From IMG/VR virus record IMGVR_UViG_3300045988_135688: DNA of 64,000 nt; one strand, 5' to 3'. Shown here one piece after another: positions 1-58,097 of this stretch (position 1 is the stretch's first letter; each line of letters starts with the position of its first letter). A program made the translations under genes and the position numbers. A model generated the notes under the pieces. The model searched no databases, was not told the DNA's origin, and saw only the letters and a program-made list of their open reading frames with translations. The stretch is from a virus.

Positions 1-672
1 GTTGTTTGGGCTATCACCTCCAGTCTTTCTGCTCTCTATGTGATGCACATTCAAGACTTTATCTTTACTCTTACCCTTACAATGTTGGCAAATATGATTA
101 TCTCTAAATAACACATATTCACGCACATTGAAGAAATCAAGCTGTTCTCCTTGTTGGTATTCACTGCCAGATATACTTGGATTATTAATCTTTTGTATAT
201 CAAAAGCAGCCGTTTCAACTACGATATTAGTTATCGGTAGGAACTTATGTATCTTCTCAACAATAGTCAAATGAGTTTGGATTTTGTTTTCAATAGATGG
301 TGCTATCCAACCTTTACGCTTGGAAGATACCCTATTATTGAAACGAGCCTTGCGATAACGAAGCCTACTCCTACGGGTTCTTCTTAATTCCCTACGAGTA
401 GATAGCTTATCCACAATATCGTTTCTCAATTCCACATCTGCTGCATACAATTCCTTCTCACTTGTTGTTGCTGAAATGCCGATATGCTTGCTACCAGCAT
501 CTACACCCAAACTTACGGGCTGTGTATAATCTGTTGTGTCATAATCCAATTGAATTGTGAACGGAATACGGCACACAACATGGGCTAGACTGTTTTTTAA
601 CAGCCTTCTCACCTTACCAAACCTTTCGGTTGGCATAAGTGCTTGTCCTTGTTTGTTAATTACGTAAACCAT
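1..672 (-). CDS. iscB: IscB-type RNA-guided nuclease (OMEGA effector), N-terminal 224 codons; ORF runs off the left window edge
   Basis: Not in ORF track because truncated. Own translation from ATG 672..670: MVYVINKQGQALMPTERFGKVRRLLK (PLMP-type N-terminus), SLGVDAGSKHIGIS (RuvC-I Asp), RRELRRTRRSRLRYRKARF (Arg-rich bridge helix), CQHCKGKS...LNVHHIESRKTGGDSPNN (HNH). Frame stays open to base 1. Confidence 0.75.
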   Translation of the reverse strand, partial: MVYVINKQGQALMPTERFGKVRRLLKNSLAHVVCRIPFTIQLDYDTTDYTQPVSLGVDAGSKHIGISATTSEKELYAADVELRNDIVDKLSTRRELRRTRRSRLRYRKARFNNRVSSKRKGWIAPSIENKIQTHLTIVEKIHKFLPITNIVVETAAFDIQKINNPSISGSEYQQGEQLDFFNVREYVLFRDNHICQHCKGKSKDKVLNVHHIESRKTGGDSPNN

Positions 673-900
673 TTTTACTATAAGTCGGATTTATCCGTTA
701 AATGCTCATCGACAATGTTATAGAGAGGTTTTCCGTCAGTAACACTATTCCTACCCCACAGAATTGTTTAATCACTGACCTTAGAGCAAGGGGCTTGAGC
801 AAACACCCACTTGGTAACTATATATTCTCTCCTAACGCTTAGTCTAATCAACTTGGGCTTTTAGCCTAATGGGTAACTGACTTATGCTATAACCACTCCT
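673..900 (-). ncRNA. candidate IscB omega-RNA (HEARO-type) scaffold directly upstream of iscB; exact 5' end unknown
   Basis: 340 nt (673-1013) without a credible ORF sits immediately 5' of the iscB start, the canonical omega-RNA position. Local hairpins at 779-791 and 856-866. No covariance model was run. Confidence 0.35.
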
Positions 901-1013
901 ACTAGTTTTTCTATGAAAATAATTTAAAATCCAAGCAACAGTCTATAAGACAAATGTTGTTTTAAAATCTTCGATGGTAGCAAAATTACCACAAATATAA
1001 TAAATATTGTGAA

Positions 1014-1706
1014 TTAATTGTTTATTAGCTCTAAATAAAGTATAGAATTTACATCTTTCTCTATCTTTGACACAACACTTTCATCAAATTTATCCTCGTC
1101 AATGCTTTTTATGTAGTCAACCAAAGAATGAATCTTCCTGTTAGTGTAAATAATAGCAGAACGAACATCATCAATCATCACGCTGTTTGAAGCCTTATCC
1201 ATCTCCTTGTCTGCAAAAGTTCTCTCATGTATAGTTCCATCTTCCTCAATTTTGTATGAAGGAATTTTGAAGAACTCACATACATCAAAACGGCTCATAA
1301 GACTAACTGCACTCATCATGCTTGTAATATCATCATCAGAGCAATCCAAGACGATATCCCTATAATCTTCACACACCAAACAACTTTTAAAAGAAAAATA
1401 TGGAATATCATCTTCCGAATCAAAAGTCCATGTTTCTTTATACTCGTTTGTCTTTATTTCAACAAACCTAGAATGATCATAGCCAACAGACTTATATTCA
1501 TTGATAACATCAATCCATCCTGTAAGTTTAGACATTGTATCATTAATATATTTTCCATACAAAACAACATCATAATACAATGCAGGTAAAGCATTATCAC
1601 GGGAAGAGAAAGTTACAGGCTTAGAAATAGATTCCAAAACGGATAACTTACCCAACACAAAATTAAATATATCAGCTAAAGGATATTCACTCTTTATTCG
1701 TTTCAT
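1014..1706 (-). CDS. hypothetical protein (230 aa)
   Basis: Long ORF co-oriented with neighbours; no motif recognised. Confidence 0.6.
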   Translation of the reverse strand: MKRIKSEYPLADIFNFVLGKLSVLESISKPVTFSSRDNALPALYYDVVLYGKYINDTMSKLTGWIDVINEYKSVGYDHSRFVEIKTNEYKETWTFDSEDDIPYFSFKSCLVCEDYRDIVLDCSDDDITSMMSAVSLMSRFDVCEFFKIPSYKIEEDGTIHERTFADKEMDKASNSVMIDDVRSAIIYTNRKIHSLVDYIKSIDEDKFDESVVSKIEKDVNSILYLELINN

Positions 1707-1838
1707 TCTAAACTATAAATAAAATCGGATGGAGGAAAACCCGAAATATGGCAAAAAAGATAAACCTCCATCCGCAAACAAAAACAAGAATTTGATCAAT
1801 ACAGGCAAAAACCACACATTTCGGATAGCATTGCAATG

Positions 1839-2174
1839 CTAAAAGGGTAAATCATCCCGTCTTTCAGGCTGGACAGGTGCAGGTGATGGAGCTTGTGCTG
1901 GTTGCGGCATATCTATCTTAAAACACCCAACTTCATTGTAATATTTACCCTGGTATTCTCTTGCTCTGATTTCAAGATGGGCAGTAATAGTATCACCCTC
2001 TTTCAATTGAAGATCACACAGGGTGCCCATTACATAGAAATACACCTCTTTGGAATACATGGAACCAATTTCCTCAACGAGATAATTTCTCTTCTGCCAA
2101 GGATTACCTGCCTTACTTGTACCAGCCTGTAACTGACCTACTTTCTTTACTTTACAATTTAATACTAAATCCAT
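1839..2174 (-). CDS. small OB-fold SSB-like protein with acidic C-terminal tip DDLPF
   Basis: 111 aa with a Pro/Ala-rich linker followed by RRDDLPF at the C-terminus. This resembles the bacterial SSB tip motif (D-D-D-I/L-P-F). Confidence 0.55.
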   Translation of the reverse strand: MDLVLNCKVKKVGQLQAGTSKAGNPWQKRNYLVEEIGSMYSKEVYFYVMGTLCDLQLKEGDTITAHLEIRAREYQGKYYNEVGCFKIDMPQPAQAPSPAPVQPERRDDLPF

Positions 2175-2178
2175 TTTT

Positions 2179-2379
2179 TTATTTTTTATATTTCTCCTCT
2201 TTTATTTTGTCTAATTCTCTCATTGCAGACAGCCTTCTTTTGTGAGCGTCCACCCTTATCCAGAAAACCTTCCAGCTAACTTCCTTACCGTTAGTTGTGT
2301 TCTCTTTAAGTATCTTGCCACATTTAAAAATCTCGTTGACAAGATAATCATACCGTTCTTTATCATAGCAATATCTCAT
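2179..2379 (-). CDS. hypothetical protein (66 aa)
   Basis: ORF track; packed 4 nt downstream of the neighbouring gene. Confidence 0.5.
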   Translation of the reverse strand: MRYCYDKERYDYLVNEIFKCGKILKENTTNGKEVSWKVFWIRVDAHKRRLSAMRELDKIKEEKYKK

Positions 2380-2438
2380 GCGACAAAAGTAATATTAAAA
2401 AATAAACTAATACAGAAAACGATATTAAAAATAGTTAA

Positions 2439-3035
2439 TCAAATGGTTAATTCTTCCTCTTCCTCTTTCGACAATGCTTCCACGTCACCATCTTCACCTT
2501 TAGGAAAATACAGTTCGTCAAGATAATTGCTTGCTTCACTCTTTTCAGTAAAACTCTTTATAACACTTCCCCGTTTGCTAACGACACGGTAACTAATATT
2601 ATCCTCTGCTACAACTTTGTAACAATTTAAATCATCCACATCTACAACATCGGGAGCATTATCATCAATACGCATCATGCTCAATATATGAGAATACTCG
2701 TTCACCTTCACCGTACAGGAAAAAACATTAGGAACTGGTTCTATTATCAATCCGGCATTTATCAATGAATCAAAAACAGAACGCCTGGGCTTATATTTCA
2801 GTTGCCTCCTTATAAACTTCAACGTTATCATATTATCTCCCCTCTGTGCGGATAATACGCACAAACGTAATACCCGTAACGCATCAATACTACATAGAGG
2901 TGAAAGGTACTTGTACAACTGGACAGGAGTAAATTTATGGTAATAATCAAATACTCCCTCTTCCTCTATTTCCCTTACACGCCTTTCCCTTTCCTTGTTC
3001 CTTACCGTCAAATTAGTGGTTTTCCTTACCGACAT
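2439..3035 (-). CDS. hypothetical protein (198 aa), acidic C-terminus
   Basis: ORF track; co-oriented; the antisense ORF 2242-2526 looks spurious. Confidence 0.6.
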   Translation of the reverse strand: MSVRKTTNLTVRNKERERRVREIEEEGVFDYYHKFTPVQLYKYLSPLCSIDALRVLRLCVLSAQRGDNMITLKFIRRQLKYKPRRSVFDSLINAGLIIEPVPNVFSCTVKVNEYSHILSMMRIDDNAPDVVDVDDLNCYKVVAEDNISYRVVSKRGSVIKSFTEKSEASNYLDELYFPKGEDGDVEALSKEEEEELTI

Positions 3036-3038
3036 AGA

Positions 3039-3725
3039 CTACCCTTTCCATGTATCGTTTTCCTTTATCCATTTACGTTCATCATCACTAAGATCACCTG
3101 TTGATTCACGATGATATACACACTTGTTGCATAACCCTGCCTTGGCACGTACACACTTGTCGCAATCGTATGGGAAAAACGCTATGGTGGTCTTGTCATA
3201 GAAATCCTCACTAGCATCATCGTCAGAAAGCCATCCTTTGAACTTTGCAAGCATATCAAGCGCACCTTTCACATCCTTAAAATCAGCAGTGTCTATATCA
3301 GAACGCTTTAGGAAACTTTCTATAAGGCTTATCGCATCTTCAAATTCAAGGTTATCCTTGTTTATCAAAGTCTTTGTCTTTTCCTTATTCTCACCTTCCA
3401 ATACACGCCTCATGGATGGTGTCACATAATCGGAAGCAAGCATGGAAGATTTGGCATAATTGACAATCTGGGTTATCCTTGGAGAATTAACCCATTGCTT
3501 GGCTTTCATAAGCAAAGAACGCTCTGACATACCCTCGTCAACAACGTGTGTAGCTCTGTAAAACAAGACAGGATTGGTATCTATGACATAAGCGGACGCA
3601 GCCCATAACTCCATCTCATTCGCATCATCAATATGCTTTGCTATATCAATCTTCTTCTGTTTTTCATCGTCAATAAGAAGATTGTTACTAAGGGGAAGTT
3701 TACCCCATCCTTTATTCAAACCCAT
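3039..3725 (-). CDS. hypothetical protein (228 aa) with C-terminal Cys cluster (CDKCVRAKAGLCNKC)
   Basis: ORF track; abuts the stop of the upstream gene. Confidence 0.6.
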   Translation of the reverse strand: MGLNKGWGKLPLSNNLLIDDEKQKKIDIAKHIDDANEMELWAASAYVIDTNPVLFYRATHVVDEGMSERSLLMKAKQWVNSPRITQIVNYAKSSMLASDYVTPSMRRVLEGENKEKTKTLINKDNLEFEDAISLIESFLKRSDIDTADFKDVKGALDMLAKFKGWLSDDDASEDFYDKTTIAFFPYDCDKCVRAKAGLCNKCVYHRESTGDLSDDERKWIKENDTWKG

Positions 3726-4000
3726 TATCTTTCCTCCTTTATCCTAGACTTTATCTCCCTTACCCTCTCGTCAAGCTCAGAAGAATATTTAAAAAGATTG
3801 TATATGCTACTCCTGTCAATACATAGGAAATCAGAAATTTCAGATATACTTAAACCCATGTCACGCATGACACAGCACACAAGCGCACGGTTCATCACAA
3901 TATCATGCTTCCTGCTTTTCCTGTTAACATCAGTATCGGAGAGTCCGCTTGCCGCTAGAACTCTCCTAAAAACCAAAGCGTTATCAGCCTTTTTCCCCAT
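3725..4000 (-). CDS. DnaA C-terminal-domain-like helix-turn-helix protein
   Basis: The stretch SRKHDIVMNRALVCCVMRDMGLSISEISDFLCIDRSSIYN resembles the DnaA domain IV HTH pattern. Confidence 0.45.
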   Translation of the reverse strand: MGKKADNALVFRRVLAASGLSDTDVNRKSRKHDIVMNRALVCCVMRDMGLSISEISDFLCIDRSSIYNLFKYSSELDERVREIKSRIKEER

Positions 4001-4484
4001 TTTTCACATTCTCCTTGTCCACTATTAATTGCATTATATCAGCGTAGCCAGCCAAGTCAACCATATTGTCACGCTTTTTATGGAATCCCTGTCTGCATAG
4101 TTTTACAGCTATCTGTACAGCAACACAGTCATAAGGAGATAATTCCTTTCCCGTAATCAAAGAAGCCATCTTGGAAATGTTTTCAAAATTGGCTACAGCA
4201 TCACCATAGTCAGACTGTCTGCTGTTGCTACGGATATCCTTTGCTTCATCAAGGATGCTTCTCTCTTTAACATGATCAACATAAGCAATACAATCCGAGA
4301 AAAGAATATATTCTTTACCTTGGTCATCCGCACAAAGAAACTTTTCACCATTCTCAAAACAGTATTTAACAGTGACAAATTTTCCGAACACATTTGACTT
4401 GCTTACAGAATCTTCACCGTGAAGTGAAATGTATTTATCACGGTTTATAATTTTCACCCTGCTGTTCAACGTAACTCCAATCAT
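3984..4484 (-). CDS. hypothetical protein (166 aa)
   Basis: ORF track; its start overlaps the stop of the upstream small ORF (ATGA). Confidence 0.6.
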   Translation of the reverse strand: MIGVTLNSRVKIINRDKYISLHGEDSVSKSNVFGKFVTVKYCFENGEKFLCADDQGKEYILFSDCIAYVDHVKERSILDEAKDIRSNSRQSDYGDAVANFENISKMASLITGKELSPYDCVAVQIAVKLCRQGFHKKRDNMVDLAGYADIMQLIVDKENVKNGEKG

Positions 4485-4648
4485 AACAAATCACCTACCT
4501 TTATGTTATCCGCATCCTTCTTATCAGAAAAGAAGATACGGTCATACTTAGTTTCACCAAACTCAACAAACATGGCTAAGATAAAATACTTGTTCAATAC
4601 ACTATCATAACCCTTGTCGTAAATCTTGTTTATCTTTTTTGTTTTCAT
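4481..4648 (-). CDS. small hypothetical protein (55 aa), not in ORF track
   Basis: Own translation: MKTKKINKIYDKGYDSVLNKYFILAMFVEFGETKYDRIFFSDKKDADNIKVGDLL. ATGA start/stop overlaps on both sides (4645-4648 and 4481-4484) suggest translational coupling. Confidence 0.5.
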   Translation of the reverse strand: MKTKKINKIYDKGYDSVLNKYFILAMFVEFGETKYDRIFFSDKKDADNIKVGDLL

Positions 4649-5025
4649 CGTTTTTCACATTTAATGTCCATACTGTCACCTCCCATCATCATCTTCAACG
4701 TACATGTATTGGACATCAGTTCAACAATCTCGTATCTTACGTACTCATATCCATCAACATAACATGTAATGGTTTTACCAGAAATATCATAAGTACCGTA
4801 ACCATTCCCAAAATAGCCCCTTCCTACATAAGTACCATCCTGATTAAACTTAGCGTAAGTAGGTCTTATCATAGGATACCATCTACCATCCACTTTTACC
4901 TGAACAAGTTCCCATGTGCCGATAATAGCATCCTTGTATTCATCATCCTTATCATTGGAACAACTACACAACCCCAATAACACTATTGAAGAAATAGCTA
5001 AAAATAATAAAAACGTCTTTCTCAT
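4645..5025 (-). CDS. lipoprotein (signal peptide plus lipobox Cys)
   Basis: N-terminus MRKTFLLFLAISSIVLLGLCSCSNDKDD is a typical Bacteroidota lipoprotein signal. Confidence 0.7.
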   Translation of the reverse strand: MRKTFLLFLAISSIVLLGLCSCSNDKDDEYKDAIIGTWELVQVKVDGRWYPMIRPTYAKFNQDGTYVGRGYFGNGYGTYDISGKTITCYVDGYEYVRYEIVELMSNTCTLKMMMGGDSMDIKCEKR

Positions 5026-5480
5026 TTCTCTGCATTATTTGTGGAACCAAAACCTCCATCACCCCTATCCGTTGAATCAAGGCTTTCAACCTCAACAAAT
5101 TCAACCTCAATATAATTACTGAAAAGAAGCTGAGCAATTCGCTCCTTGGCAGCAATATAGAAAGGCTCTTTCTCAAAGCTCTTCACTATAACACCTATAC
5201 AACCTGTATAGTCACAATCAATAACACCATCCAACACATCAGCGTCATGATACTTCCCGTCAACGCCAATAATACCTTTCAGGGAAAATCCACTCCGCGG
5301 CTTGATAATAGCCTTCATATTTGAAGGCATCTGAATGGCTATACCAAGTTTAATCAGATTACGACCTTTTCTTATCAACGTGTTGTCAGGAACATACAAA
5401 TCATACCCGGCAGCACCATCAGTTTTTTTTTCGGGAAGAACTGCATCCCGTCTTAATTTTACGAATTTTACTTGATTCAT
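5022..5480 (-). CDS. dut: dUTP pyrophosphatase
   Basis: dUTPase motifs AAGYDL, KPRSG and GVIDCDYTG, with C-terminal RGDGGFGST. Confidence 0.85.
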   Translation of the reverse strand: MNQVKFVKLRRDAVLPEKKTDGAAGYDLYVPDNTLIRKGRNLIKLGIAIQMPSNMKAIIKPRSGFSLKGIIGVDGKYHDADVLDGVIDCDYTGCIGVIVKSFEKEPFYIAAKERIAQLLFSNYIEVEFVEVESLDSTDRGDGGFGSTNNAEK

Positions 5481-5944
5481 TTTTTTATTTTTCTCTTTAA
5501 ATCATACATAGCGCATTCCCTGCTTCTATAAATCTTGCTTGCAGGATAAATCACATCACTTACAATAACAAAGCCGACAACAGGATCTGTAATTGGAACT
5601 ACTTCACCATCAACAATGGTAAAATGATTCTCGGACAAAAGTCTTCTCATGGCAGCAATCTGTTCGAGAGTAGCCTTTGAGATATCATAGCCGTTTGAAA
5701 AGTTAAACTCTGAATTACATATAAGAGTATTCTTGTCCTCATACAAGAATATAGCTTTCAAACCACCATTATTGATAAAAACATAATCCTTGCCATTTCC
5801 TGTCCTGCTCTTAGCAAACAGGAAATCTCCTTTCTTGAAATCGTCAATCTTTACCAACTCGTAAGTACAATCATCAATCTTATTCAAGATATACCCATTA
5901 GGCAGTTTTATTACACTTGAATTAGTATTACCCATTTCTTTCAT
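5477..5944 (-). CDS. hypothetical protein (155 aa)
   Basis: ORF track; overlapping start/stop with neighbours. Confidence 0.6.
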   Translation of the reverse strand: MKEMGNTNSSVIKLPNGYILNKIDDCTYELVKIDDFKKGDFLFAKSRTGNGKDYVFINNGGLKAIFLYEDKNTLICNSEFNFSNGYDISKATLEQIAAMRRLLSENHFTIVDGEVVPITDPVVGFVIVSDVIYPASKIYRSRECAMYDLKRKIKK

Positions 5945-6143
5945 CCGTATTCAATCTGAATGCAGCCTCCCTAGCCTGATCCTTCGTTCTATACAACTCT
6001 ATTTTTTCAAACATACGACCATCATCACAGTCATACGTACACAAGGTGACAGCCCACATATTACCACGCGGAGAATAGAAATACCTGCCGTAATCCTTTC
6101 CCATCACCTTACCGTCAATTCTTATTTCTCCTTTGTTAGCCAT
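5928..6143 (-). CDS. hypothetical protein (71 aa)
   Basis: ORF track; operon context. Confidence 0.5.
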   Translation of the reverse strand: MANKGEIRIDGKVMGKDYGRYFYSPRGNMWAVTLCTYDCDDGRMFEKIELYRTKDQAREAAFRLNTDERNG

Positions 6144-7449: not shown

Positions 7450-8411
7450 TCTCTAAATTGTTTAATGTTAATACTCTTCAAATTATTAATAACAGCATCT
7501 CCGATATCATCGTTATGCTTCAATCCAAAAGACAGGCTAGGGAACTCCCACCATCTCGCCACACGTCCTTTGTCACCCCACAAAGATATAGCTTTATTAT
7601 CAAAGTCGGGGAATAAAATAACATTTTTTGGCAATTTATTTCCAAGCTGGTTCATTCCGCCACAAGCTATCCATACAAAACCGTTACCGAAAGCCATAGA
7701 AGCTATTATGGCGGTTTTCTCCGATTCAACCATACAAGTTATCGCATCGCTACAATACTCCCCTAAAAACGGCTTAAAATAGCCGCGATAGGTAAATCCT
7801 TCGCCCGTAGTAAACTTCCTGAAAGCATGGGTTTCCTTCTTCCTGTGCCCGTTCACCTCATATCTTATCCTGTTGTCATGGCACACGTTACCATCCTTGT
7901 CGGAATACCAGAACACAGCGGATTCCTTTCCAAGACATCCTACCTTGTACCTTGAAAACACATCATTCACGGAATCAACACCGAAAACGCCTGAAAGGTA
8001 CTCGTACAGGTTATTACCCTTCCAATGCCCGGCATCGCTAAGCCTGTCAACATACTTCATATCAACAAACCTTGATTCCTGCCTTCCCGAATCATACTCC
8101 CTCTCGTAGAAATCCTTCAAACTCATCCTGCAACCGTCAGGACTTGACAGAATCCTAAAAGCATCAGAAGCACTGCTGCAACCGGGAAGATAAGACACGA
8201 GAAAATCAAATAGGTTGACAGAATCACCTCCCTGCTCGGTAACGGTGATACTGCCCGACTTGTTCATATAGAAAACCAGCTTATCCTTCCTGCTATGGCT
8301 CTCCAGATTTATCCGGGCAGGCAATGTCCACCGCTTACCCCTACGCCTTAAAGGAAGCCCAAGCACCGTGTCAAGATTGGCAAATATATACTCATAATCA
8401 ATACTAGCCAT
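7434..8411 (-). CDS. Toprim-like / primase-like protein
   Basis: CMVESEKTAIIAS (Toprim Glu) and ILFPDFDNKA (DxD) in the C-terminal half. Replication-module context. Confidence 0.45.
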   Translation of the reverse strand: MASIDYEYIFANLDTVLGLPLRRRGKRWTLPARINLESHSRKDKLVFYMNKSGSITVTEQGGDSVNLFDFLVSYLPGCSSASDAFRILSSPDGCRMSLKDFYEREYDSGRQESRFVDMKYVDRLSDAGHWKGNNLYEYLSGVFGVDSVNDVFSRYKVGCLGKESAVFWYSDKDGNVCHDNRIRYEVNGHRKKETHAFRKFTTGEGFTYRGYFKPFLGEYCSDAITCMVESEKTAIIASMAFGNGFVWIACGGMNQLGNKLPKNVILFPDFDNKAISLWGDKGRVARWWEFPSLSFGLKHNDDIGDAVINNLKSINIKQFREWILN

Positions 8412-8415
8412 GGCA

Positions 8416-8649
8416 TTACTTAAAATTACGCCATCCCTGTTTCAAATCCCTAAAGAAATCGCTAAACGTATAACGATAACCGTCAGGATATCCTAGAAAA
8501 TCAGAAAGGCATGAAACATATCCTCCAGGCTTACGTCCACTCGTCCATCGGTACACCATTTCGGCAGGAACCATAAACACAAGAAGAACAAATAAAATGT
8601 CAACGTATATGAGAAACATGACAAAACGAACAAAGCACCTCATAATCAT
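8416..8649 (-). CDS. small membrane protein (start moved to internal ATG)
   Basis: MIMRCFVRFVMFLIYVDILFVLLVFMV is a hydrophobic helix. ATG 8649..8647 overlaps the stop of the upstream ORF (ATGA). Confidence 0.45.
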   Translation of the reverse strand: MIMRCFVRFVMFLIYVDILFVLLVFMVPAEMVYRWTSGRKPGGYVSCLSDFLGYPDGYRYTFSDFFRDLKQGWRNFK

Positions 8650-9248
8650 TCCTCCACATCCCCTAAAAGAAGTTTCTTCGCATAACGCAACGCAAATTCC
8701 CAATTGTAATAAAACGTACCTAGCAAATCAAAGAACAGGCTATACACGGCATCCTTGTCACCATCGGGAACGGAATACATGATATCATCCATCATACGGA
8801 TATCATCACTGAATCTGGCATTCTTTGTAGTATAACGCCACAAACCGCCAACGGCAAGTATCTTGGCGTGTTCATAAACATGATAGTCAATGGAATATAC
8901 ATCACAAACGTAGTCATTAAACCAATCCTCATTGTTAAGCACACCACTAACAGGGCTTGCCGACAAAATCATATTAACAAACACACCAAAATGACAATAC
9001 TGCTCTATCTTACCCGAATTATTGTCAAACTCAACCTTGAAAGCATCCTTGCCGCCCTCATTAATACTGCAAACCATGTCACTTACGTAAAGCGTCTTTA
9101 ACCACTGGCTGAAATTATACCTTTTCAAACCAGTCCTGTTACGGGCTTCATTTATCGCACACTGGGCATCAGACACACATACATACCAATCAGAAGTAAC
9201 ACGAATACTTCTATCAAATAAAACAATCTCTTTATTATCCATACACAA
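8646..9248 (-). CDS. hypothetical protein (200 aa)
   Basis: ORF track; promoter boxes upstream. Confidence 0.6.
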   Translation of the reverse strand: MCMDNKEIVLFDRSIRVTSDWYVCVSDAQCAINEARNRTGLKRYNFSQWLKTLYVSDMVCSINEGGKDAFKVEFDNNSGKIEQYCHFGVFVNMILSASPVSGVLNNEDWFNDYVCDVYSIDYHVYEHAKILAVGGLWRYTTKNARFSDDIRMMDDIMYSVPDGDKDAVYSLFFDLLGTFYYNWEFALRYAKKLLLGDVEE

Positions 9249-9261
9249 TAAAATTTTTCAG

Positions 9262-9295
9262 CAAAAATACATATTAAAGTAATATGGCAAAAATA
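9262..9295 (-). promoter_or_regulatory. two TATTTTTG -7 boxes (minus strand) upstream of 8646..9248
   Basis: Plus-strand CAAAAATA at 9262-9269 and 9288-9295 reads as TAnnTTTG on the minus strand. Confidence 0.35.
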
Positions 9296-9312
9296 ATAAC
9301 AGTTAAACAATA

Positions 9313-9927
9313 TTAAACAGACAACCTATTATCTTTCCATTTTTTAGCTTTCAACAAACCAACACGGACAGCTTCATTGTTATTCCATTTAAAAATGTCA
9401 CACATAAGAGATATATATTCATGGATCTTATCTCTATACAACAACTGTTCTTCTGTTGCGTGTTGCCAATCTGTCGTTATACCACATTCTTCTTTTATCA
9501 TAGTGCACAATAATGACATAGCTTTTGAGAACTGGCTTTTATTGGAACAATTATTATACAGCGCACCAGTCATTTCTTTAAATGAATCACCGCTATCATT
9601 ACGATATTCAAGAAGTTTGTCGAATAACCATTCATACACCTCAACTTTCAACTTTGGATTTATCGCCAACGCCAAATCCAAGAATAAAAAAGGATGAACC
9701 CATGTATGATGCCCTCTACCCCTTCCGCTAATAATAGCAGTACCATATTTTTTTTCTAACTCCACAATAAACTCTCTTGTATTATTGCTTTGCCGCCATT
9801 CATGCCATGAAAACAAAGATTTACCATTTTTTAAAAGCCAATTATTACCAGCTTTAATCAAATCCGTAGCAGAATACATTCCACTATCAGAAACAGTTAT
9901 TTTTTGACCAAAAATAGATGTATCCAT
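9313..9927 (-). CDS. KilA-N domain protein
   Basis: GMYSATDLIKA...GRGRGHHTWVHPFLFLDLALAINPKLKVEVYEWLFD is the classic KilA-N signature. Confidence 0.7.
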   Translation of the reverse strand: MDTSIFGQKITVSDSGMYSATDLIKAGNNWLLKNGKSLFSWHEWRQSNNTREFIVELEKKYGTAIISGRGRGHHTWVHPFLFLDLALAINPKLKVEVYEWLFDKLLEYRNDSGDSFKEMTGALYNNCSNKSQFSKAMSLLCTMIKEECGITTDWQHATEEQLLYRDKIHEYISLMCDIFKWNNNEAVRVGLLKAKKWKDNRLSV

Positions 9928-9928
9928 A

Positions 9929-10546
9929 TCAATAAGTTTTATATAACTCGAAATTATTATTCATAATACATTTATAGACTATGCCAATAAACTTTCCAAT
10001 ATTAACCTTGTTGTCTATTCTAATGACCTTATACCCCTTGCCTATTAAAAAGTTGGTTCTATTGATTTCATCAATTGTATCATATCCAATATGCCTGTTT
10101 TCATCTATTTCAACTATAATGGATTTATTAATTAAAATATCAACACAATATGGCTCTATAGGATACTGCCTTTCTATCGTAAAATTAATTCCAGATGATT
10201 CCATAAATGATTTCAATTCAAAGAAAAACTCACTTTCGTCTATTTTTCTCAAAGATATATCAGAATCAGAAACTAATCCTTGGACAAAAAGCTCGTGTAT
10301 AAAAAACTTTTTCTCGAACAAAGAAAGCCTATAAGACTTAGATAACCATTCTTTAATACATTCTCCATTAACAAGGACACAACTTCCTCTTCCTTTTTTA
10401 CTAGGACGAATTATGTTATCTTGATTAAGACTGTTTAATTCAGTATGTTTAAAAGAATTACTTCCTATAAACACATTAAAAACAGACGATTTAAACCATC
10501 CATCTTTAACACTTTCTACTTTTACATTATTAAATGTATATTCCAT
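9929..10546 (-). CDS. DUF559/Vsr-like (PD-(D/E)XK) endonuclease-domain protein
   Basis: C-terminus YCVDILINKSIIVEIDENRHIGYDTIDEINRTNFLIGKGYKVIRID fits the D...E-x-D/H...R pattern of DUF559-type nucleases. Start set at MEYTF. Confidence 0.5.
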   Translation of the reverse strand: MEYTFNNVKVESVKDGWFKSSVFNVFIGSNSFKHTELNSLNQDNIIRPSKKGRGSCVLVNGECIKEWLSKSYRLSLFEKKFFIHELFVQGLVSDSDISLRKIDESEFFFELKSFMESSGINFTIERQYPIEPYCVDILINKSIIVEIDENRHIGYDTIDEINRTNFLIGKGYKVIRIDNKVNIGKFIGIVYKCIMNNNFELYKTY

Positions 10547-10629
10547 ATCTCCTTTTTTATGCAAAGATATGGAATATACATTAATAAACAAAACAAAAAG
10601 GGTATTTATTTATCATAAAACAAACCACC

Positions 10630-12096
10630 CTAAAACGGCAAATCCTCCTTCATTATATCATCAGCCTGTTGGAGAAGATATTCGTCAGGATTATACTTCC
10701 GTCTTAGGACAACCTGAAACAGCCTGTTCCTGTTCTCATCCCACGCGGAAGTGACGGAATAGCCTTCCTGGCGTATCATGTCAACCATCTTTCTCTTACT
10801 GTAAGGTCTAACGCCACAGTCATTGCAGTATGCTATGTATTTCACATACAGGTCACGGTCACGGATAGCCGATTCCTCAATATCTCCCGAAGAATCATAC
10901 CCCGAATCGTAAAGATACGACAAGACACTGTTGGAATCACGTCTTGCATTCTCCGTAACGGATTCTATCGTGTAACTTCTCGTAAACTCACCCTTGTTCT
11001 TAACAAACCGTCTTGCACCCTCTATTATCCAGTTGATAATGGCTGCCGATTCCTTTGACAGCTTCAACGGAAGAGATCTGTCCTGTTCCGATTCCTTGAA
11101 CACACGATAGAACGGGATAACAAGGGAGCGTCTGAAGTGACCATAAGTCTGGTCCGAAACGGAAGGCATCTTGTTAAGGTTGGCCATGAAAGGCGGCATC
11201 ATGTCGGCAAGGAAAGGCTCACCGAACGGAAGGCGCGCCATAGTAGGCTCACCAGATATGAACTTCTTATACTTTCCACCGCTCACGTCCTTCCCACCCA
11301 TCTCTGAGGCGTAGTTGAGCAGCTTGCCGTTTATCATCGCTATATTGTACTCGCAAGTAGACTTGTCACCCGACAGGTCAGCCATCTCCATATACGACAC
11401 ATTGTCTTTCCCCAGGGCATTGACAACAGCGTCAAAGAACACCGACTTACCGTTACTACCACAACCGAGAAGGTAACACATCTTCTCCATCTTGATCTTC
11501 TTCCTGTCAACAAAGGCACACCCCACAAACTCCTGCAAGGCATCCTGTGTGTCCTTCACCGGGATCACATCGTCTAGGAACTTCTCCCACAACGGGCTGC
11601 GCGCCAACGGGTCATAATTGATATTGATACGTATGCACGATTCTATCATAGGAGAGAAATCGAACGTTTCCATCGTTTCCGTGTCAAGGACACAATTGTC
11701 AAACGTGATGAAGTTACGCTTGGGATTGAATATCTCATGCGTCACGTTCTTTACGATGGTACGGTAGAACCGCTCGCTCGTATCGGTCATGTACAGTTCG
11801 CTAAGACCGTTTATGCGGCACAAATCCATACACAGGCGCATCAGATCCTCCTTCATCATGGGAACGAATATCTTACCGTCAAAAGCCATGATGGAACCGC
11901 TCCTGTGGCGTCTGAAATTGCATTCCCTGCACGCATCGGCTATATCCATCTCGACCATAGCGGATATGGAACGCTTCCACTCGCCTTCATCCCTTGCTTT
12001 ACGGAAGCCACGACCACCACCCTTGTCCGCCAGCTTGCCCATAACGGAATCAAGGATGTATTCATAAGAAGCCTTTGCAGATTCAGCGACAGTCAT
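10630..12096 (-). CDS. P4/D5-family primase-helicase (SF3 NTPase)
   Basis: Walker A GCGSNGKS; overall D5_N/P4 C-terminal layout. Ends in EDLPF. Confidence 0.8.
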   Translation of the reverse strand: MTVAESAKASYEYILDSVMGKLADKGGGRGFRKARDEGEWKRSISAMVEMDIADACRECNFRRHRSGSIMAFDGKIFVPMMKEDLMRLCMDLCRINGLSELYMTDTSERFYRTIVKNVTHEIFNPKRNFITFDNCVLDTETMETFDFSPMIESCIRININYDPLARSPLWEKFLDDVIPVKDTQDALQEFVGCAFVDRKKIKMEKMCYLLGCGSNGKSVFFDAVVNALGKDNVSYMEMADLSGDKSTCEYNIAMINGKLLNYASEMGGKDVSGGKYKKFISGEPTMARLPFGEPFLADMMPPFMANLNKMPSVSDQTYGHFRRSLVIPFYRVFKESEQDRSLPLKLSKESAAIINWIIEGARRFVKNKGEFTRSYTIESVTENARRDSNSVLSYLYDSGYDSSGDIEESAIRDRDLYVKYIAYCNDCGVRPYSKRKMVDMIRQEGYSVTSAWDENRNRLFQVVLRRKYNPDEYLLQQADDIMKEDLPF

Positions 12097-13120
12097 TTTC
12101 CCCTCCTTTCTCTACCGATCCTACCGATTCTACCGATTTCTCCCGGTCCACAACCTTCCCGAACATTACAACAGGATACAGGTCATAATCGTCCGTTGAT
12201 ATGTCAGGGCGTGCGTCTATATCGTCAAGGGAAGAGTACACGTCCGCGATGTGCTCCAGTTTCCTGCACACGATGGAATCACGTCTTATCCCGTAATACT
12301 CTATAAGGTCAGCCATGTACTGTATGGTGATGTCCTTGAACCACGTGAACGCATCATCACGTGTCTTTGCACCGTCACAGCAGGTATTGAACGTGTACCC
12401 GAAACGCCTCATCTTCACGAAGTAGCTGTTCCGCCACAACGACACCGACTTGTCCATCTCGCTCCCTGCATTGCGTATGGCGGTGACGATGCTTCCCGGC
12501 ATGAGCGCGCACCGTGAAACGCGAGCGGCGGAAGGCTTCCCGTTCGCCCCGGTTCCATCCACCATATCCACATCGGGCACGAACCTTAGATCATCCACGC
12601 TCCTTCCGCCAACAACGGACGTGTCATGGCGCATAAGGTAGTCTGCATCCACGATATGCCCGTACTGTCTTACCTGGTCCTCGCACCACGAAGCGAATCT
12701 GCGCAACGACCGTTTCCACTCGGAAGGAAGCACATACCCGCACCTTGCACATATCTCCGCTATATGCTTCCTCTCCTTCTCCCATTTTCTCTTCATCTTC
12801 CTCTCGTACTCCAGCACCTCACCCTCCACGCTGACACCAGCGACCTGTGCAGCCATAGACTTTGCAGTTAAAGGTACGGGCACACGCTTGATGAATGACG
12901 CTTCCGACACGAACACAGCCTTTGTTCCGTCCTCCAGAGGCTCGTCAAGTTTAAGACAGCAGTGACGATCCCTGAAGCTGACGAGCGTAACCCACCCGAA
13001 CAGCCGTGTCTGAACCCTCATTCCCTTGTACCAACGTTCCCTGTCGGGCATTGCATCGGACAGGCATACGACACGCCTTGATTCGGGCAACCTAAGTTTA
13101 ATCTCTATTTTTTCTTCCAT
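12083..13120 (-). CDS. hypothetical protein (345 aa), G+C-rich
   Basis: Long ORF whose stop overlaps the primase-helicase start. Several antisense ORFs here are compositional artefacts. Confidence 0.6.
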   Translation of the reverse strand: MEEKIEIKLRLPESRRVVCLSDAMPDRERWYKGMRVQTRLFGWVTLVSFRDRHCCLKLDEPLEDGTKAVFVSEASFIKRVPVPLTAKSMAAQVAGVSVEGEVLEYERKMKRKWEKERKHIAEICARCGYVLPSEWKRSLRRFASWCEDQVRQYGHIVDADYLMRHDTSVVGGRSVDDLRFVPDVDMVDGTGANGKPSAARVSRCALMPGSIVTAIRNAGSEMDKSVSLWRNSYFVKMRRFGYTFNTCCDGAKTRDDAFTWFKDITIQYMADLIEYYGIRRDSIVCRKLEHIADVYSSLDDIDARPDISTDDYDLYPVVMFGKVVDREKSVESVGSVEKGGENDCR

Positions 13121-20197: not shown

Positions 20198-20385
20198 ATA
20201 AGGTGGAAGTAGGAATCCTTGACGAGAACGATCTGTTTGAACACAGGGGTGTAATATATGAGGTCTTATACAAGACGGATTATTGTGTCCGTTGCCAATA
20301 CCCAAACGACAAATATCGTTACAGGGATATGTGGAAATATCTCTATACCGAATTTAGTTTGTGGATAAAAGTGAACAAGATATGA
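20194..20385 (+). CDS. hypothetical protein (63 aa)
   Basis: ORF track; ATGA overlaps. Confidence 0.55.
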   Translation: MNKVEVGILDENDLFEHRGVIYEVLYKTDYCVRCQYPNDKYRYRDMWKYLYTEFSLWIKVNKI

Positions 20386-20543
20386 AAACATTGGTTTTTG
20401 ATGTGATGCTTGACGGGCGATTTGTACATACGTTCAGATACCAATATTGCCCGTTGTTCCCGATAGACGAACAGGAACTAGAGAAGTTTGTTACCGACAG
20501 GCTTCCTACATTAAAAGGTAAAGATTTTAAAATAGTATTTTGA
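20382..20543 (+). CDS. hypothetical protein (53 aa)
   Basis: ATG 20382 overlaps the stop of the preceding ORF. Confidence 0.5.
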   Translation: MKTLVFDVMLDGRFVHTFRYQYCPLFPIDEQELEKFVTDRLPTLKGKDFKIVF

Positions 20544-26332: not shown

Positions 26333-26378
26333 CATCATGTTTGAGTGTAGAAGCAAGCATATCTATAATGAAAGTTTA

Positions 26379-29680: not shown

Positions 29681-30895
29681 ATGCAATTAGTTTATAAATT
29701 TGACATCAACCATTCCGACAGGCTTTGCGCTATCTGCCGTGTTACGAACAACCTGTACAACCAGGCGTTGTATATTGTCCGTAACGAGTTGAAGGATAAC
29801 GACAGGTGGCTGTTCTATCCCGACTTGGACAGGATAATGAAAAATGTCACCAACCTTGAAGGTACGATAAATTACAGGCTTGTGAAATCACACGTAGCCC
29901 AACAGACATTGCGCGTGCTTGACAAGGCAATGAAGGGATATGTCAAGGCTGTAAAGGATTGGTCTAAGAATCCGGGGAAGTATAACGGTAAGCCCGAACT
30001 GCCATGCTATCACAAACGTGGAGGGATGAGCAATGCGATATATACCAACCAGTCGTGCAAGATACATGACGGGTATATAATCCTTGACCGTGACTTGAAA
30101 ATACCCGTTCCTCAATGGGAGAAATACAAGGACAGAATCGAACGGTTCAAACAGGTTAGGATAATTCCAAAGCGTACATACATGACCGTGGAGGTTGTAT
30201 ATGATTGTGACTGTTCGGATAATGTCGGTACTGGTATGGCTTCGATAGACTTGGGTGTGAACAACCTTGCCACGCTGGTGTGCGGATGTAATGCGCTATT
30301 GTTTTCCGGCAAGGTTATCAAGTCATATAACAGATGGTTTAACAAAAAATTATCCATGCTGCAATCCATAAAGGACAGGCAGGGTATAGAGAAACTGACA
30401 AACAGAATGAGAAAGATGTATGATAAACGTGAACGGTTTATGAATGATGCGATGCACAAGACAAGCAGGCGTATCGTTGATTATCTTGTATCACACCATA
30501 TAGGCACTCTTGCTGTAGGCTACAACAAAGGATGGAAGCAATCCGTCAATATGGGCGGAGTAAACAATCAGAAGTTTACATTCATCCCTTTTGCGAGGTT
30601 GAGAAGCTGCCTTAGATACAAGTGCGAGCTTGCAGGTATCAGCTATATCGAACATGAGGAAAGCTACACGAGCAAATGTGACGCTCTGTCTATGGAGGAT
30701 ATATGCAAGCATGAGAGTTATCTCGGCAAGCGTGTCAAGCGAGGACTGTTCAAGTCGGCAGTTGGAAAGGTTATCAATGCTGATGTCAACGGTGCGCTTA
30801 ATATCGGTAGAAAAGTATTCGGTGATTCATTTATGATAACTGATAGTGGGCGTTGGTATCGCCCCGAACGAATTAACGTTTTAAAATGTGTGTAA
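29681..30895 (+). CDS. tnpB: TnpB RNA-guided endonuclease (IS605 OrfB family)
   Basis: RuvC triad candidates SIDLGVNN (D), IEHEESYTSKC (E), INADVNGALNIGRK (D). N-terminus YKFDINHSDRL..LYNQALYIV. Confidence 0.85.
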   Translation: MQLVYKFDINHSDRLCAICRVTNNLYNQALYIVRNELKDNDRWLFYPDLDRIMKNVTNLEGTINYRLVKSHVAQQTLRVLDKAMKGYVKAVKDWSKNPGKYNGKPELPCYHKRGGMSNAIYTNQSCKIHDGYIILDRDLKIPVPQWEKYKDRIERFKQVRIIPKRTYMTVEVVYDCDCSDNVGTGMASIDLGVNNLATLVCGCNALLFSGKVIKSYNRWFNKKLSMLQSIKDRQGIEKLTNRMRKMYDKRERFMNDAMHKTSRRIVDYLVSHHIGTLAVGYNKGWKQSVNMGGVNNQKFTFIPFARLRSCLRYKCELAGISYIEHEESYTSKCDALSMEDICKHESYLGKRVKRGLFKSAVGKVINADVNGALNIGRKVFGDSFMITDSGRWYRPERINVLKCV

Positions 30896-51418: not shown

Positions 51419-52708
51419 TTAAATATCTAATGTTCCATCAAAATAATAACCCCTATTGAATTTTATGACAACATCTTCCAATGGTAAAAGGCTTTTGTCT
51501 ACTTGGGAAAGGAATGCTCCTAATGTTTCGTATCCGCCTTTCACAAAGCATTTTTCTCCTTTGAACAGTATCTGCATTCTTACCCATGTACTATTGTCCT
51601 TCTTTGTAGATGGTCTTACATCAAAATCAAGAATGTCTATATGCTCATCGACAAGTTTGTCTATCTTTATATCCTTTCCGTCAAACTTTCTTGACACTCT
51701 TATATTTAAGTCACTAATCTTTGTCATGTGGCTATTATTATTAACTAAAACTTTATTAATTAAGTTTTTAGAATCACAGTGCATCAACATACCCATATAA
51801 CTCGTAATTGATTTTGGGTTATTACGTTTTGACGCAAAGTTTTTCTTTATTCTCTTTCTTATTTTGGTATGACCGGGAGTAAAGACAAATCCACCGAAAT
51901 CTATCCCTTCTGAAACGGGGAATATCCTGTAATTTTTCTTCATCTCCAACTTTTTTTCATACCACAGGTAATTTCTTATCCTCCACAGCCATTCATGCAA
52001 CTGTTTCTTGTCGTGGGATAATATCACCATATCATCGGCAAATCTGAAATAATGCTTTACTTTGAACTGCTCCTTTATAACATGATCCAAAGACCTTAAT
52101 ACCAAATGGCTTCCTATCTGAGCGTCAGGATTGCCAATAGCCAGACCTTTGTTGCTGTAATTAAGCGTATTCATAAGCCATAACGCATCCCTGTCTTTCA
52201 AGTCTTTGCTATATGCCTTCTTGTAAACGCTGTGTCTTACGGACGGATAAAACTTCTTAATATCCATTTTCAAAACGTATATTTTTCCGTTTTTGTCCAT
52301 TTCAAGCAATGTCCGTTTCATCTTTCTCACAAGGGAATGCTTTTTAACCTTACTTGTAATACCCCTTTTGGGCAGACAGTTATATGAATCAAGTGTAAGG
52401 CTTTTTGTCCATCTGTCCATCATGGGTACCAAAAGGCTGTGCTGGATAATCCTGTCCGGGTAAAACGGGAGTTTGTGTATCTCCCTTACCTTTCCTGCAT
52501 CAGTCACTTTCTCTATCACCTCATACTTGCTTACATGGTATGATTTGTCTTTGAGCATCTGATAAACATTCTGATGATATTCATCCTTATGTTTCTCATA
52601 ATCCCTCACACCCCTGTGATTCCTCTTTCCTTTCTTTGCCTTTTCAGCAGCAGAGATAATATTATCCATACTGCCTATCGTTTCAAAAATATTATTCAAT
52701 CTTTTCAT
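51419..52708 (-). CDS. DGR reverse transcriptase (429 aa)
   Basis: RT motifs KVREIHKLPFYPDRIIQH, LKMDIKKFYPS, GLAIGNPDAQIGSHL, YFRFADDMVILS (YxDD-type), GIDFGGFVF. Sits next to a TR/VR pair. Confidence 0.85.
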   Translation of the reverse strand: MKRLNNIFETIGSMDNIISAAEKAKKGKRNHRGVRDYEKHKDEYHQNVYQMLKDKSYHVSKYEVIEKVTDAGKVREIHKLPFYPDRIIQHSLLVPMMDRWTKSLTLDSYNCLPKRGITSKVKKHSLVRKMKRTLLEMDKNGKIYVLKMDIKKFYPSVRHSVYKKAYSKDLKDRDALWLMNTLNYSNKGLAIGNPDAQIGSHLVLRSLDHVIKEQFKVKHYFRFADDMVILSHDKKQLHEWLWRIRNYLWYEKKLEMKKNYRIFPVSEGIDFGGFVFTPGHTKIRKRIKKNFASKRNNPKSITSYMGMLMHCDSKNLINKVLVNNNSHMTKISDLNIRVSRKFDGKDIKIDKLVDEHIDILDFDVRPSTKKDNSTWVRMQILFKGEKCFVKGGYETLGAFLSQVDKSLLPLEDVVIKFNRGYYFDGTLDI

Positions 52709-53109: not shown

Positions 53110-53130
53110 ATTTTTCACTTCGTGAAAAAT
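53110..53130 (-). promoter_or_regulatory. 9-bp perfect hairpin (ATTTTTCAC-TTC-GTGAAAAAT) flush with the target-gene stop codon
   Basis: Read directly. Its right arm ends at 53130, the last base of TAA (53132..53130). Confidence 0.8.
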
Positions 53131-55160: not shown

Positions 55161-55164
55161 TATA

Positions 55165-57257: not shown

Positions 57258-58097
57258 ATGAATGTATTAAGTTTATGTGACGGGATAGCTTGTGGACGTA
57301 TTGCACTAGAAAGAATGGGGTATAGAGTGGAAAAGTATTACGCAAGCGAAATAAATGAACCGTCTATCAAGGTTGCATTGGATAATTACCCCGATATAAT
57401 TGAATTGGGGGATATTAGAAACTGGAACAAATGGAATATACAGTGGGAAGATATTGATTTGCTGATTGGCGGAACACCATGTCAGGATTTCTCACAGTTA
57501 GGGAAAGAGAAACTGAACTTCGATGGCGAGCGTTCGGGATTATTCTTTGAATATGTCAATATACTCAACCATATCAGACAGTTCAATCCTAATATAAAGT
57601 TCATGCTCGAAAACGTGAAGATGAAATCCGATTGGGCTGATTTGATTTCGTCACATCTTGGAGTAGACTATGTGTATATCAACAGTTCCGATTTCTCCGC
57701 ACAAATGAGAGCAAGATACTACTGGTGCAATTGGGAAATACCTGCATGGAAGGACAAGGGAATACTGTTCAAGGACATCATTACGGACGGGTATGTGAAG
57801 AAAGACAAATCATGGTGTATGCTTGAATCATGGAACAGGTTTGCCAAGAACCCCGAATCGTTGTTAAGAAGATATAAAAAATCACTTACACCGTTGATAT
57901 TCAACTCACCCGACTGTAATCCAGAAAAAGGTTTCAGAACGCCCAATATTACGGAAGCAGAAAGATTACAGACAGTTCCCGAAGGATACACCAAGTCGGT
58001 ACAACCACATATAGGCATGGGGCTGTTAGGAAACGGATGGACAGTAGATGTGATTAGTCATATTTTAAAAGGATTAAACAATGAACGCAATAGTTAG
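57258..58097 (+). CDS. dcm: DNA (cytosine-5)-methyltransferase, compact (279 aa), no cognate nuclease seen
   Basis: LSLCDGIACGRIAL (motif I), GGTPCQDFS (motif IV PCQ), FMLENV (motif VI), QTVPEGYT, GNGWTVDVI (motif X). Confidence 0.85.
   Translation: MNVLSLCDGIACGRIALERMGYRVEKYYASEINEPSIKVALDNYPDIIELGDIRNWNKWNIQWEDIDLLIGGTPCQDFSQLGKEKLNFDGERSGLFFEYVNILNHIRQFNPNIKFMLENVKMKSDWADLISSHLGVDYVYINSSDFSAQMRARYYWCNWEIPAWKDKGILFKDIITDGYVKKDKSWCMLESWNRFAKNPESLLRRYKKSLTPLIFNSPDCNPEKGFRTPNITEAERLQTVPEGYTKSVQPHIGMGLLGNGWTVDVISHILKGLNNERNS

Follow-up and report, generated by a model that had tools for sequence, protein, structure and literature searches.

IscB is a small ancestor of Cas9. For bacterial elements that encode it, the nuclease has been shown to follow a logic in which the flank of the element supplies the guide (Meers et al., PMC10055086), and TTCAT is the motif of the Geobacillus protein, GstIscB (PMC10055086). 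For phages, homing of such elements is treated as theoretical in a 2026 review, having been shown for plasmid-borne IS605 with TnpB (PMC13565253). What, then, can be discerned about an IscB that resides in a phage? We have analyzed a 64,000-nucleotide stretch of viral DNA (IMG/VR record IMGVR_UViG_3300045988_135688; the window in the following), whose left edge, as read from its sequence, encodes an IscB up to residue 224, with an omega-RNA directly upstream. The locus is probably a non-autonomous OMEGA element of the IS200/IS605 type, with a guide derived from its flank and with the uninterrupted alleles of related phages, its siblings, as predicted targets. We identify its protein and its RNA, its boundaries, its flanking motif and its target sites, and find the protein to be under purifying selection.

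The open reading frame (ORF) of the nuclease starts with an ATG at position 672 of the minus strand and runs through 224 codons to window base 1, where it leaves the window; it is missing from the program-made ORF list because that list omits ORFs running off an end. Its translation bears out the IscB architecture proposed in the initial annotation, with QALMPT, GVDAGSKHIGIS of RuvC-I, an Arg-rich stretch and CQHC...HHIESRKTGG..N. The Pfam family RRXRR is matched over its whole length (residues 2-175 of the window ORF, E-value 5.9e-64), and among the sequences of solved structures in the PDB the best matches are IscB chains (E-value 8.5e-41), followed by IsrB and small Cas9s. The Pfam HNH profile reaches 20.7 bits on the truncated ORF, just under its cut-off of 21.4 bits, because the window edge cuts the HNH domain; on the full-length protein the match has an E-value of 2.2e-10. 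The truncation is a matter of the window edge only, and the gene is uncut in the genome, since public contigs that are 100% identical to window 1-6000 (L004, L005 and L010) continue leftwards into a complete protein of 414 residues. L004, which is part of a 95-kb contig, extends beyond the window edge, and its iscB has 414 codons. The protein of 230 residues encoded upstream (ORF 1014-1706, minus strand) can be found in no fewer than 22 public contigs.

The full protein aligns with chains of the OgeuIscB type (E-value 1.1e-52) through RuvC-I, bridge helix, RuvC-II, HNH and RuvC-III, so that the leftward extension called for by the initial annotation supplied the remaining RuvC motifs. Residues 1-50, ALMPT included, constitute the PLMP domain and align with residues 3-52 of IscB chains; they, too, fall within the RRXRR match. 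The Arg-rich bridge helix, RRELRRTRRSRLRYRKARFNNR (residues 93-114), follows RuvC-I and lies within both the RRXRR match and the IscB alignment. In the split RuvC domain, the codons for D58 and E153 lie in the window and those for H296 and D299 in the identical contig L004, all four residues being aligned to the OgeuIscB-type chains; the HNH domain sits between RuvC-II and RuvC-III, and its residues C195, C198, H210, H211, N224, C229, C232 and H233 are invariant among copies. From translation, Pfam, PDB and L004, window positions 1-672 (minus strand) can thus be described as the 5' part of iscB, codons 1-224 of 414, comprising PLMP, RuvC-I with D58, the bridge helix, RuvC-II with E153 and the beginning of HNH (C195, C198, H210, H211, N224). 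Alignments of the sequence and of the family profile to PDB sequences end at residue 336, leaving the last ~80 residues unaligned. In an AlphaFold model these are beta-rich, with a predicted local distance difference test (pLDDT) of 60-70, and a Foldseek search with this low-confidence model places IscB-omega-RNA-DNA complexes on top, matching 8csz_D from end to end (E-value 1.6e-18). The model suggests that a C-terminal TI domain is likely to be present.

Directly 5' of iscB and on the same strand, the Rfam family HEARO (RF02033) matches window 697-881 (minus strand) with 92.1 bits at a gathering score of 83 (cmscan, E-value 6e-19, model positions 1-211), ending 25 nt before the start codon; no other Rfam family reaches its gathering score anywhere in the 64 kb. 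The initial annotation had assigned an omega-RNA to the 340 nt between iscB and the next gene (673-1013). This stretch indeed lacks a credible ORF, with candidates of only 34 and 46 codons, and the small hairpins pointed out at 779-791 and 856-866 both fall inside the full-length HEARO match; the omega-RNA, however, fills only ~205 of the 340 nt, and the remaining 132 nt (882-1013) belong to ordinary intergenic DNA of the phage. Since the stretch up to the iscB start codon consists of the terminal hairpin CGGAUAAAUCCG, which is conserved, and of a short spacer, we delimit the scaffold as 673-881 (minus strand), with base 881 as the first base of the element, on the basis of the cmscan match, an alignment of 39 copies and the similarity boundary at 881/882. 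Four modules are variably present in this alignment: two small 5' hairpins, a UUCG-type hairpin and a 46-nt stem-loop. The window omega-RNA is devoid of the first small hairpin and of the UUCG hairpin, and RNAs of its type score 90-92 bits, the full versions 130-136 bits. This short form is shared by several otherwise intact copies in differing contexts. The core helices are retained, and 6 of the 46 predicted pairs have changed on both sides among the 39 copies (columns 58/205, for example, read AU in 28, UA in 9 and CG in 2), a covariation support that is modest as the copies are closely related.

Two further observations concern the RNA. In L026, L052, L058, L061, L062 and L063, omega-RNAs without the 46-nt stem-loop (alignment columns 140-185) stand beside intact iscB genes of 414 or 418 codons; the one in L026 does not reach the Rfam gathering score. 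These RNAs would, if active, represent naturally minimised guide scaffolds, and such naturally shortened omega-RNAs may interest engineers of compact genome editors. In addition, the cultured Parabacteroides phage PF672P2 (OP172820.1, ~57570-57828; L003 3131-3389, minus strand) carries a 259-nt omega-RNA without iscB that scores 130 bits with HEARO. It retains the last bases of the element and ends in GTTAAATT, followed by ATGAA at the start codon of gene PF672P2_00078; in the database record, a hypothetical protein, 00077, is annotated across it on the opposite strand. It could be a miniature element, or a guide RNA possibly acting in trans.

What is the mobile unit? IMG/VR contains 204 stretches that encode relatives of this IscB, of which 80 were fetched for comparison. 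The unit consists of the omega-RNA and iscB and nothing else, ~1.41-1.55 kb in all (~1.45 kb). Similarity among copies begins at L004 10826, which corresponds to window 881 and thus to the first HEARO base, and breaks off at most a few bases from the iscB stop codon. By an approximate clustering that mis-calls a few of the scaffold starts, the left flanks fall into 28 types and the right flanks into 19. Three exact pairs of filled and empty alleles were found (L016 versus window 20381/20382, L061 versus L059, and L069 versus L084), and in all three empty alleles the flanks are contiguous, without duplication and without loss. The element lies between a 16-nt flank, which becomes the guide, and ATGAA: over 19 distinct right flanks, the bases following the element are A in 19, T in 19, G in 17, A in 18 and A in 17, after which the sequence varies. 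Read on the other strand, ATGAA becomes the TTCAT reported for GstIscB. In 13 of the 19 cases the ATG of the right flank opens an ORF of 53-367 codons, so the element directly precedes the next phage gene, in the same direction. The subfamily of the window has gone as far as to dispense with a stop codon of its own, iscB using the TGA of the flanking ATGA. Some phage contigs hold two IscB copies. With no target duplication and a fixed short motif, boundaries and insertion mode fit the IS200/IS605 type.

Beyond the element, ~40-70 nt past the iscB stop codon and outside the left edge of the window, L004 carries a GC-rich repeat, GCGACCGAAGCGAAGCGAGGGAGCACAGGGGCAGTC (12314-12350), which differs from its counterpart in L012 by one indel. 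At least 10 independent assemblies stop at this repeat, ~50-110 nt after iscB, which could mean that the region varies, that the genome ends here or that assembly is problematic.

The predicted guide, AGTGGTTATAGCATAA, comprises the 16 nt at 882-897 (minus strand), directly 5' of the scaffold and in flank DNA outside the element. Copies in different contexts diverge there, as one would expect for a guide taken from the flank: 34 distinct 16-nt upstream sequences occur among the copies, and similarity starts exactly at the first scaffold base. Between the guide and the upstream ORF of 230 residues (1014-1706) extends a phage intergenic leader (898-1013, minus strand), which is conserved in siblings, as seen in alignments to L012 and L111; in it, TATATTTG (999-992) was picked out by eye as a putative Bacteroides-type -7-like motif.

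Where does this guide point? The initial annotation had asked whether to its own homing site, to competing phages or to the host, and the answer came from sibling phages, while no host target turned up. Within the window the guide occurs once. In the genome collection, guide plus ATGAA has one exact match of 21 nt, in a Bacteroidetes metagenome-assembled genome (MAG; L092 768-788, JAKAGV010000005.1); we considered it as a host target and judged it a chance match, as it lies inside an unrelated ORF of 632 residues, shows no similarity in its flanks and compares with ~0.3 matches expected. A degenerate search with GGTTATAGNATAAATGAA, in which one base is variable, returned 67 sites in IMG/VR, 55 of which are one homologous hairpin-loop structure. 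In siblings this hairpin reads GGGGTGGTTATAG-CATAAATGAAAAGGA-CTATACCACCCC, with the match in its loop. At 41 of the sites, all on sibling contigs, the sequence is GGTGGTTATAGCATAA followed by ATGAA, which matches 15 of the 16 guide bases with the sole mismatch farthest from the motif; 14 further hairpin sites carry two mismatches. Upon this result we dropped the idea of an orphan guide without target, stranded beside the element by a deletion. The hairpin has a 12-bp stem followed by UUUAUUU (folding energy -15.3 kcal/mol for the centroid, z -2.1) and looks like the terminator of the upstream genes. In the window, the guide is made up of part of the 5' arm (899-887) and the first five loop bases (886-882, CATAA) of this hairpin, which is intact in siblings.

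The arrangement at the window's own locus is more involved than at the three exact allele pairs. On either side of this locus, L111, L131 and L132 share 96-97% identity with the window lineage. They show the upstream region, the intact hairpin, an ORF of 94 residues and the ATGAAAATT flank; the window shows the upstream region, the 5' hairpin arm plus CATAA, the IscB element and the same ATGAAAATT flank. The element therefore replaces ~310 nt, and a simple filled/empty relation is ruled out here by the hairpin and the 94-residue ORF of the siblings, with the target on the other strand. When many sibling copies are compared with the window, their motif-side flank is fixed at a gene start, while their guide-side junctions lie at various upstream positions, each then followed by ATG in the window, and 11 to 1465 nt of window DNA are missing between the sibling junctions. 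Recombination between two copies in the same orientation, or homing via the nearest shared flanks, would produce this pattern of replaced alleles.

Could a transposase still move the element? In the 418-residue subfamily (e.g. L070), matching hairpins with the same loop lie near both ends: CCCACAGG-CTAAAGA-CCTGTGGG, 8 nt from the omega-RNA end, and CCCATAAA-CTAAAGA-TTTATGGG, ~22 nt from the ATGAA end. These predicted structures are laid out like the ends of IS200/IS605 elements. Both are missing from the window lineage (L004): a 46-nt deletion took the original stop codon together with the hairpin at the 3' end of iscB, and the other lost end hairpin is the one missing from the omega-RNA. With both end hairpins lost, and given the published need for intact ends (PMC10055086), the window copy should not be excisable by TnpA. 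Gene calls up to 10 kb away in L001, L002 and L004-L011, and up to 4 kb away in L093 and L094, include no member of the corresponding family, Y1_Tnp. L093 and L094 had been picked as likely bacterial contigs in search of a TnpA partner, which neither provided; L094 proved phage-like, with two IscB copies 4 kb apart and small unannotated genes, and L093 is a short contig. A crude regular-expression scan of the window for HUH motifs gave no TnpA candidate, a weak test whose scope does not include a host-encoded TnpA.

The gene itself is well preserved. Intact ORFs of 414-419 codons are found in 83 of 87 copies, and among 44 unique 414-codon sequences the ratio of nonsynonymous to synonymous substitutions (dN/dS) is 0.12, with a mean dN of 0.023 and a mean dS of 0.193. 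Invariant in these 44 copies are D58, E153, H210, H211, N224, H296, D299 and the four zinc-binding cysteines. IscB is thus under purifying selection in phage genomes. Broken ORFs number four in all, and the relatives P0037 and P0042 have internal deletions. As a separate observation, L001 encodes at 10001-11128 an IscB of 375 residues, of which the ~100 at the end bear no relation to the family, since the gene lacks its 3' part; it adjoins a phage integrase gene, and its left flank is near-identical to those of the intact copies L017, L020 and L023. This is a decayed copy.

How might such an element act? Its transcription, the length of its guide, cleavage and homing are inferred. The omega-RNA would be transcribed jointly with its 5' flank DNA, probably by read-through from the upstream phage genes, as these no longer have their terminator, destroyed by the element. 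The 16 flank bases next to the scaffold would then act as guide, and IscB with this RNA would cut DNA in which the guide sequence is followed by ATGAA. The carrier phage would be spared because its guide sequence precedes the element itself (GTCAG) and not ATGAA; siblings with the intact terminator hairpin would carry the site and be cut, and the element would be copied in as the break is repaired from the genome that bears it, which amounts to homing. As both TnpA hairpins are lost, homing together with recombination between copies, rather than peel-and-paste transposition, likely accounts for the spread, and we infer that it proceeds by RNA-guided homing between coinfecting phages. A wider proposal can be put forward only tentatively, with the odds somewhat against it: that this IscB family of gut Bacteroidales phages has turned into a transposase-independent, RNA-guided homing cassette, in which hairpin-less copies cut siblings at flank-defined ATGAA sites at start codons, and repair copies them in, replacing the DNA up to the next shared gene. 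If true, the cassette would drive module exchange between phages, and each rearrangement of its flank would re-aim it.

Several findings weigh against a flank-guided element aimed at its siblings. The guide-matching sequence of the siblings lies on the strand opposite to the orientation of the window element, so that we must assume that either the hairpin, or an element inserted into it, became inverted. The window arm GGTTATAG, with its two T's, and the five loop bases also fit the opposite-strand reading. The flipped-hairpin empty allele that would be predicted, U-GGAGTGGTTATAGCATAA followed by ATGAA, was not found; IMG/VR has no match to an 18-mer of flank with the guide at its end, and the metagenome collection none to the exact guide plus ATGAA. 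The omega-RNA, short of two hairpins, exceeds the Rfam gathering score by just 9 bits, and what speaks for the TI domain is a model with a mean pLDDT of 57. Finally, no TnpA that could account for the first colonisation of new sites was found near the copies.

The weaknesses of the RNA also lend themselves to a reading of the locus as an inactive relic, a decaying insertion with eroded omega-RNA and ends whose nuclease lies idle. The RNA near the Rfam threshold, the absence of both end hairpins and the existence of degenerate relatives (the truncated L001, the internally deleted P0037 and P0042, the four broken ORFs) would all agree with this. Decay of this kind is very improbable, however, at a dN/dS of 0.12 and with invariant catalytic residues; the same short omega-RNA recurs in several otherwise intact copies in different contexts, and its core helices are kept with compensatory changes. 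The same selection, with 95% of the ORFs intact, can instead be taken to mean that IscB has been domesticated as a weapon, kept because it benefits the phage by destroying sibling phages or host DNA, and not for its own spread. The loss of both TnpA hairpins, the lack of a TnpA nearby and a guide that matches sibling phage genomes suit this explanation too, and intron endonucleases are known as a means of competition among coinfecting phages, according to work cited in PMC13565253. We nevertheless regard it as unlikely, although less so than decay: each guide examined is the adjacent flank and its targets are the matching uninterrupted alleles, which is the pattern of a selfish element, and the lone 21-nt match in a Bacteroidetes MAG (about 0.3 expected) leaves no host target. 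Killing a competitor and homing into it can, moreover, co-occur. HNH nucleases are common in phage replication modules, and several other nuclease-like genes are found nearby in sibling contigs, so that an ordinary free-standing HNH homing endonuclease, recognizing DNA by protein and preceded by an unrelated structured leader, also had to be considered. It is refuted, with hardly any probability left to it, by the RRXRR, HEARO and IscB-structure matches: besides possessing the split RuvC, bridge helix and PLMP domain, the protein aligns along its length with IscB structures, and its leader is a HEARO RNA. We therefore retain the non-autonomous OMEGA element with sibling alleles as targets.

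The window phage is also a predicted recipient of such elements, as well as a carrier. On the plus strand, 20366-20386 is an empty target site for the guide of L016, matching 15 of 16 bases, with the mismatch in a distal position, and running directly into ATGAA, where the next small gene starts (filled/empty comparison, guide scan, ORFs); 20366-20381 plus ATGAAA corresponds exactly to the L016 locus in its empty state. A second empty site, 26352-26372 (plus strand; guide scan and sequence), has all 16 bases of the L027-type guide before its ATGAA, 26352-26367 plus ATGAAA being a perfect match. Five additional window sites are within 0-1 mismatch of sibling guides and stand beside an ATG, with a weaker motif. 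The host of this uncultured phage of ~95 kb probably belongs to the Bacteroidales. The nearest isolate relatives of its primase are those of Bacteroides, Phocaeicola and Parabacteroides phages, at just 33-35% identity; since a megablast search of window 1-4000 against GenBank phages gave as its only match 165 nt of omega-RNA in Parabacteroides phage PF672P2, no isolate is a close relative.

Other genes of the window deserve brief mention. The TnpB placed ~29 kb from iscB by the initial annotation is there, a protein of 404 residues at 29681-30895 (plus strand) with the Pfam domains OrfB_IS605 and Cas12f1-like TNB. As TnpB occupies other positions in siblings (L007 3195-4409; L004 19269-20441), a second family of RNA-guided nucleases may also move within this phage group. 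A reverse transcriptase is encoded at 51419-52708 (minus strand; Pfam RVT_1, E-value 3e-9) beside large ORFs at 53130-56901 (minus strand), one of which has a CarboxypepD_reg-like domain; the locus could be a candidate diversity-generating retroelement acting on a tail fibre. Next to the primase, a locus at ~1100-3500 in L004-L011, equivalent to window ~8200-10600, varies among siblings between nuclease-like or anti-repressor-like genes, for DUF559, T5orf172/MUG113, KilA-N, pRha and methyltransferase proteins, and looks like a hot spot of gene exchange.

How does the element compare with known systems? With OgeuIscB, from a human gut metagenome (PDB 7utn, 7xht, 8csz), it shares the domain order PLMP, RuvC-I, bridge helix, RuvC-II, HNH, RuvC-III and C-terminal domain, the catalytic residues, and a HEARO-type omega-RNA directly 5' of the gene. 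The window protein is shorter, with 414 instead of ~496 residues, and does not align in sequence past residue 336, so its putative TI domain would be diverged; its omega-RNA is without two small hairpins, and its setting is a phage genome. The motif of OgeuIscB is reportedly NWRRNA, which would accept ATGAAA. Cas9 of type II CRISPR systems is more distant: its chains match weakly (E-values of 1e-8 to 1e-15), and the 414-residue protein has no REC lobe. Since the IscB-omega-RNA complex is well characterised and its occurrence in viruses has been reported, the basic finding is a correct annotation rather than a discovery. Among the HEARO nucleases of viral genomes (Goltsman et al. 2022, PMC9755519), likewise IscB systems in viruses, few are linked to TnpA, but that work presents them as a genome-editing resource, without phage insertion sites, guides or targets. 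The comparison adds a natural example whose guides, flanking motif and uninterrupted target alleles are all legible in the genomes of related phages.

The closest parallel in logic is the IscB element ISGst5 of Geobacillus stearothermophilus (Meers et al., PMC10055086), which likewise takes its guide from one flank and has its motif at the other end; the motif is the same, TTCAT in the orientation of that paper being the reverse complement of ATGAA, and in both systems the uninterrupted alleles are the predicted targets. The Geobacillus elements, however, are excised by TnpA and restored at the donor site by the nuclease, whereas here no TnpA was found and the end hairpins are lost; the targets would therefore be alleles in other phage genomes and not excision scars. 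In its predicted outcome the element resembles the free-standing homing endonucleases of phages, such as Seg and Mob of T4, in that coinfection would lead to a cut in the sibling, to its acquisition of the gene and to co-conversion of the DNA alongside; while Seg and Mob recognize DNA by protein, this element would do so by an RNA guide and a 5-nt motif. The same outcome is foreseen in the 'non-restorative transposon homing' of PMC13565253, and with its guide-target pairs, lost transposase hairpins and replaced alleles, the present family makes RNA-guided homing in phages, so far only proposed, testable with defined sequences.

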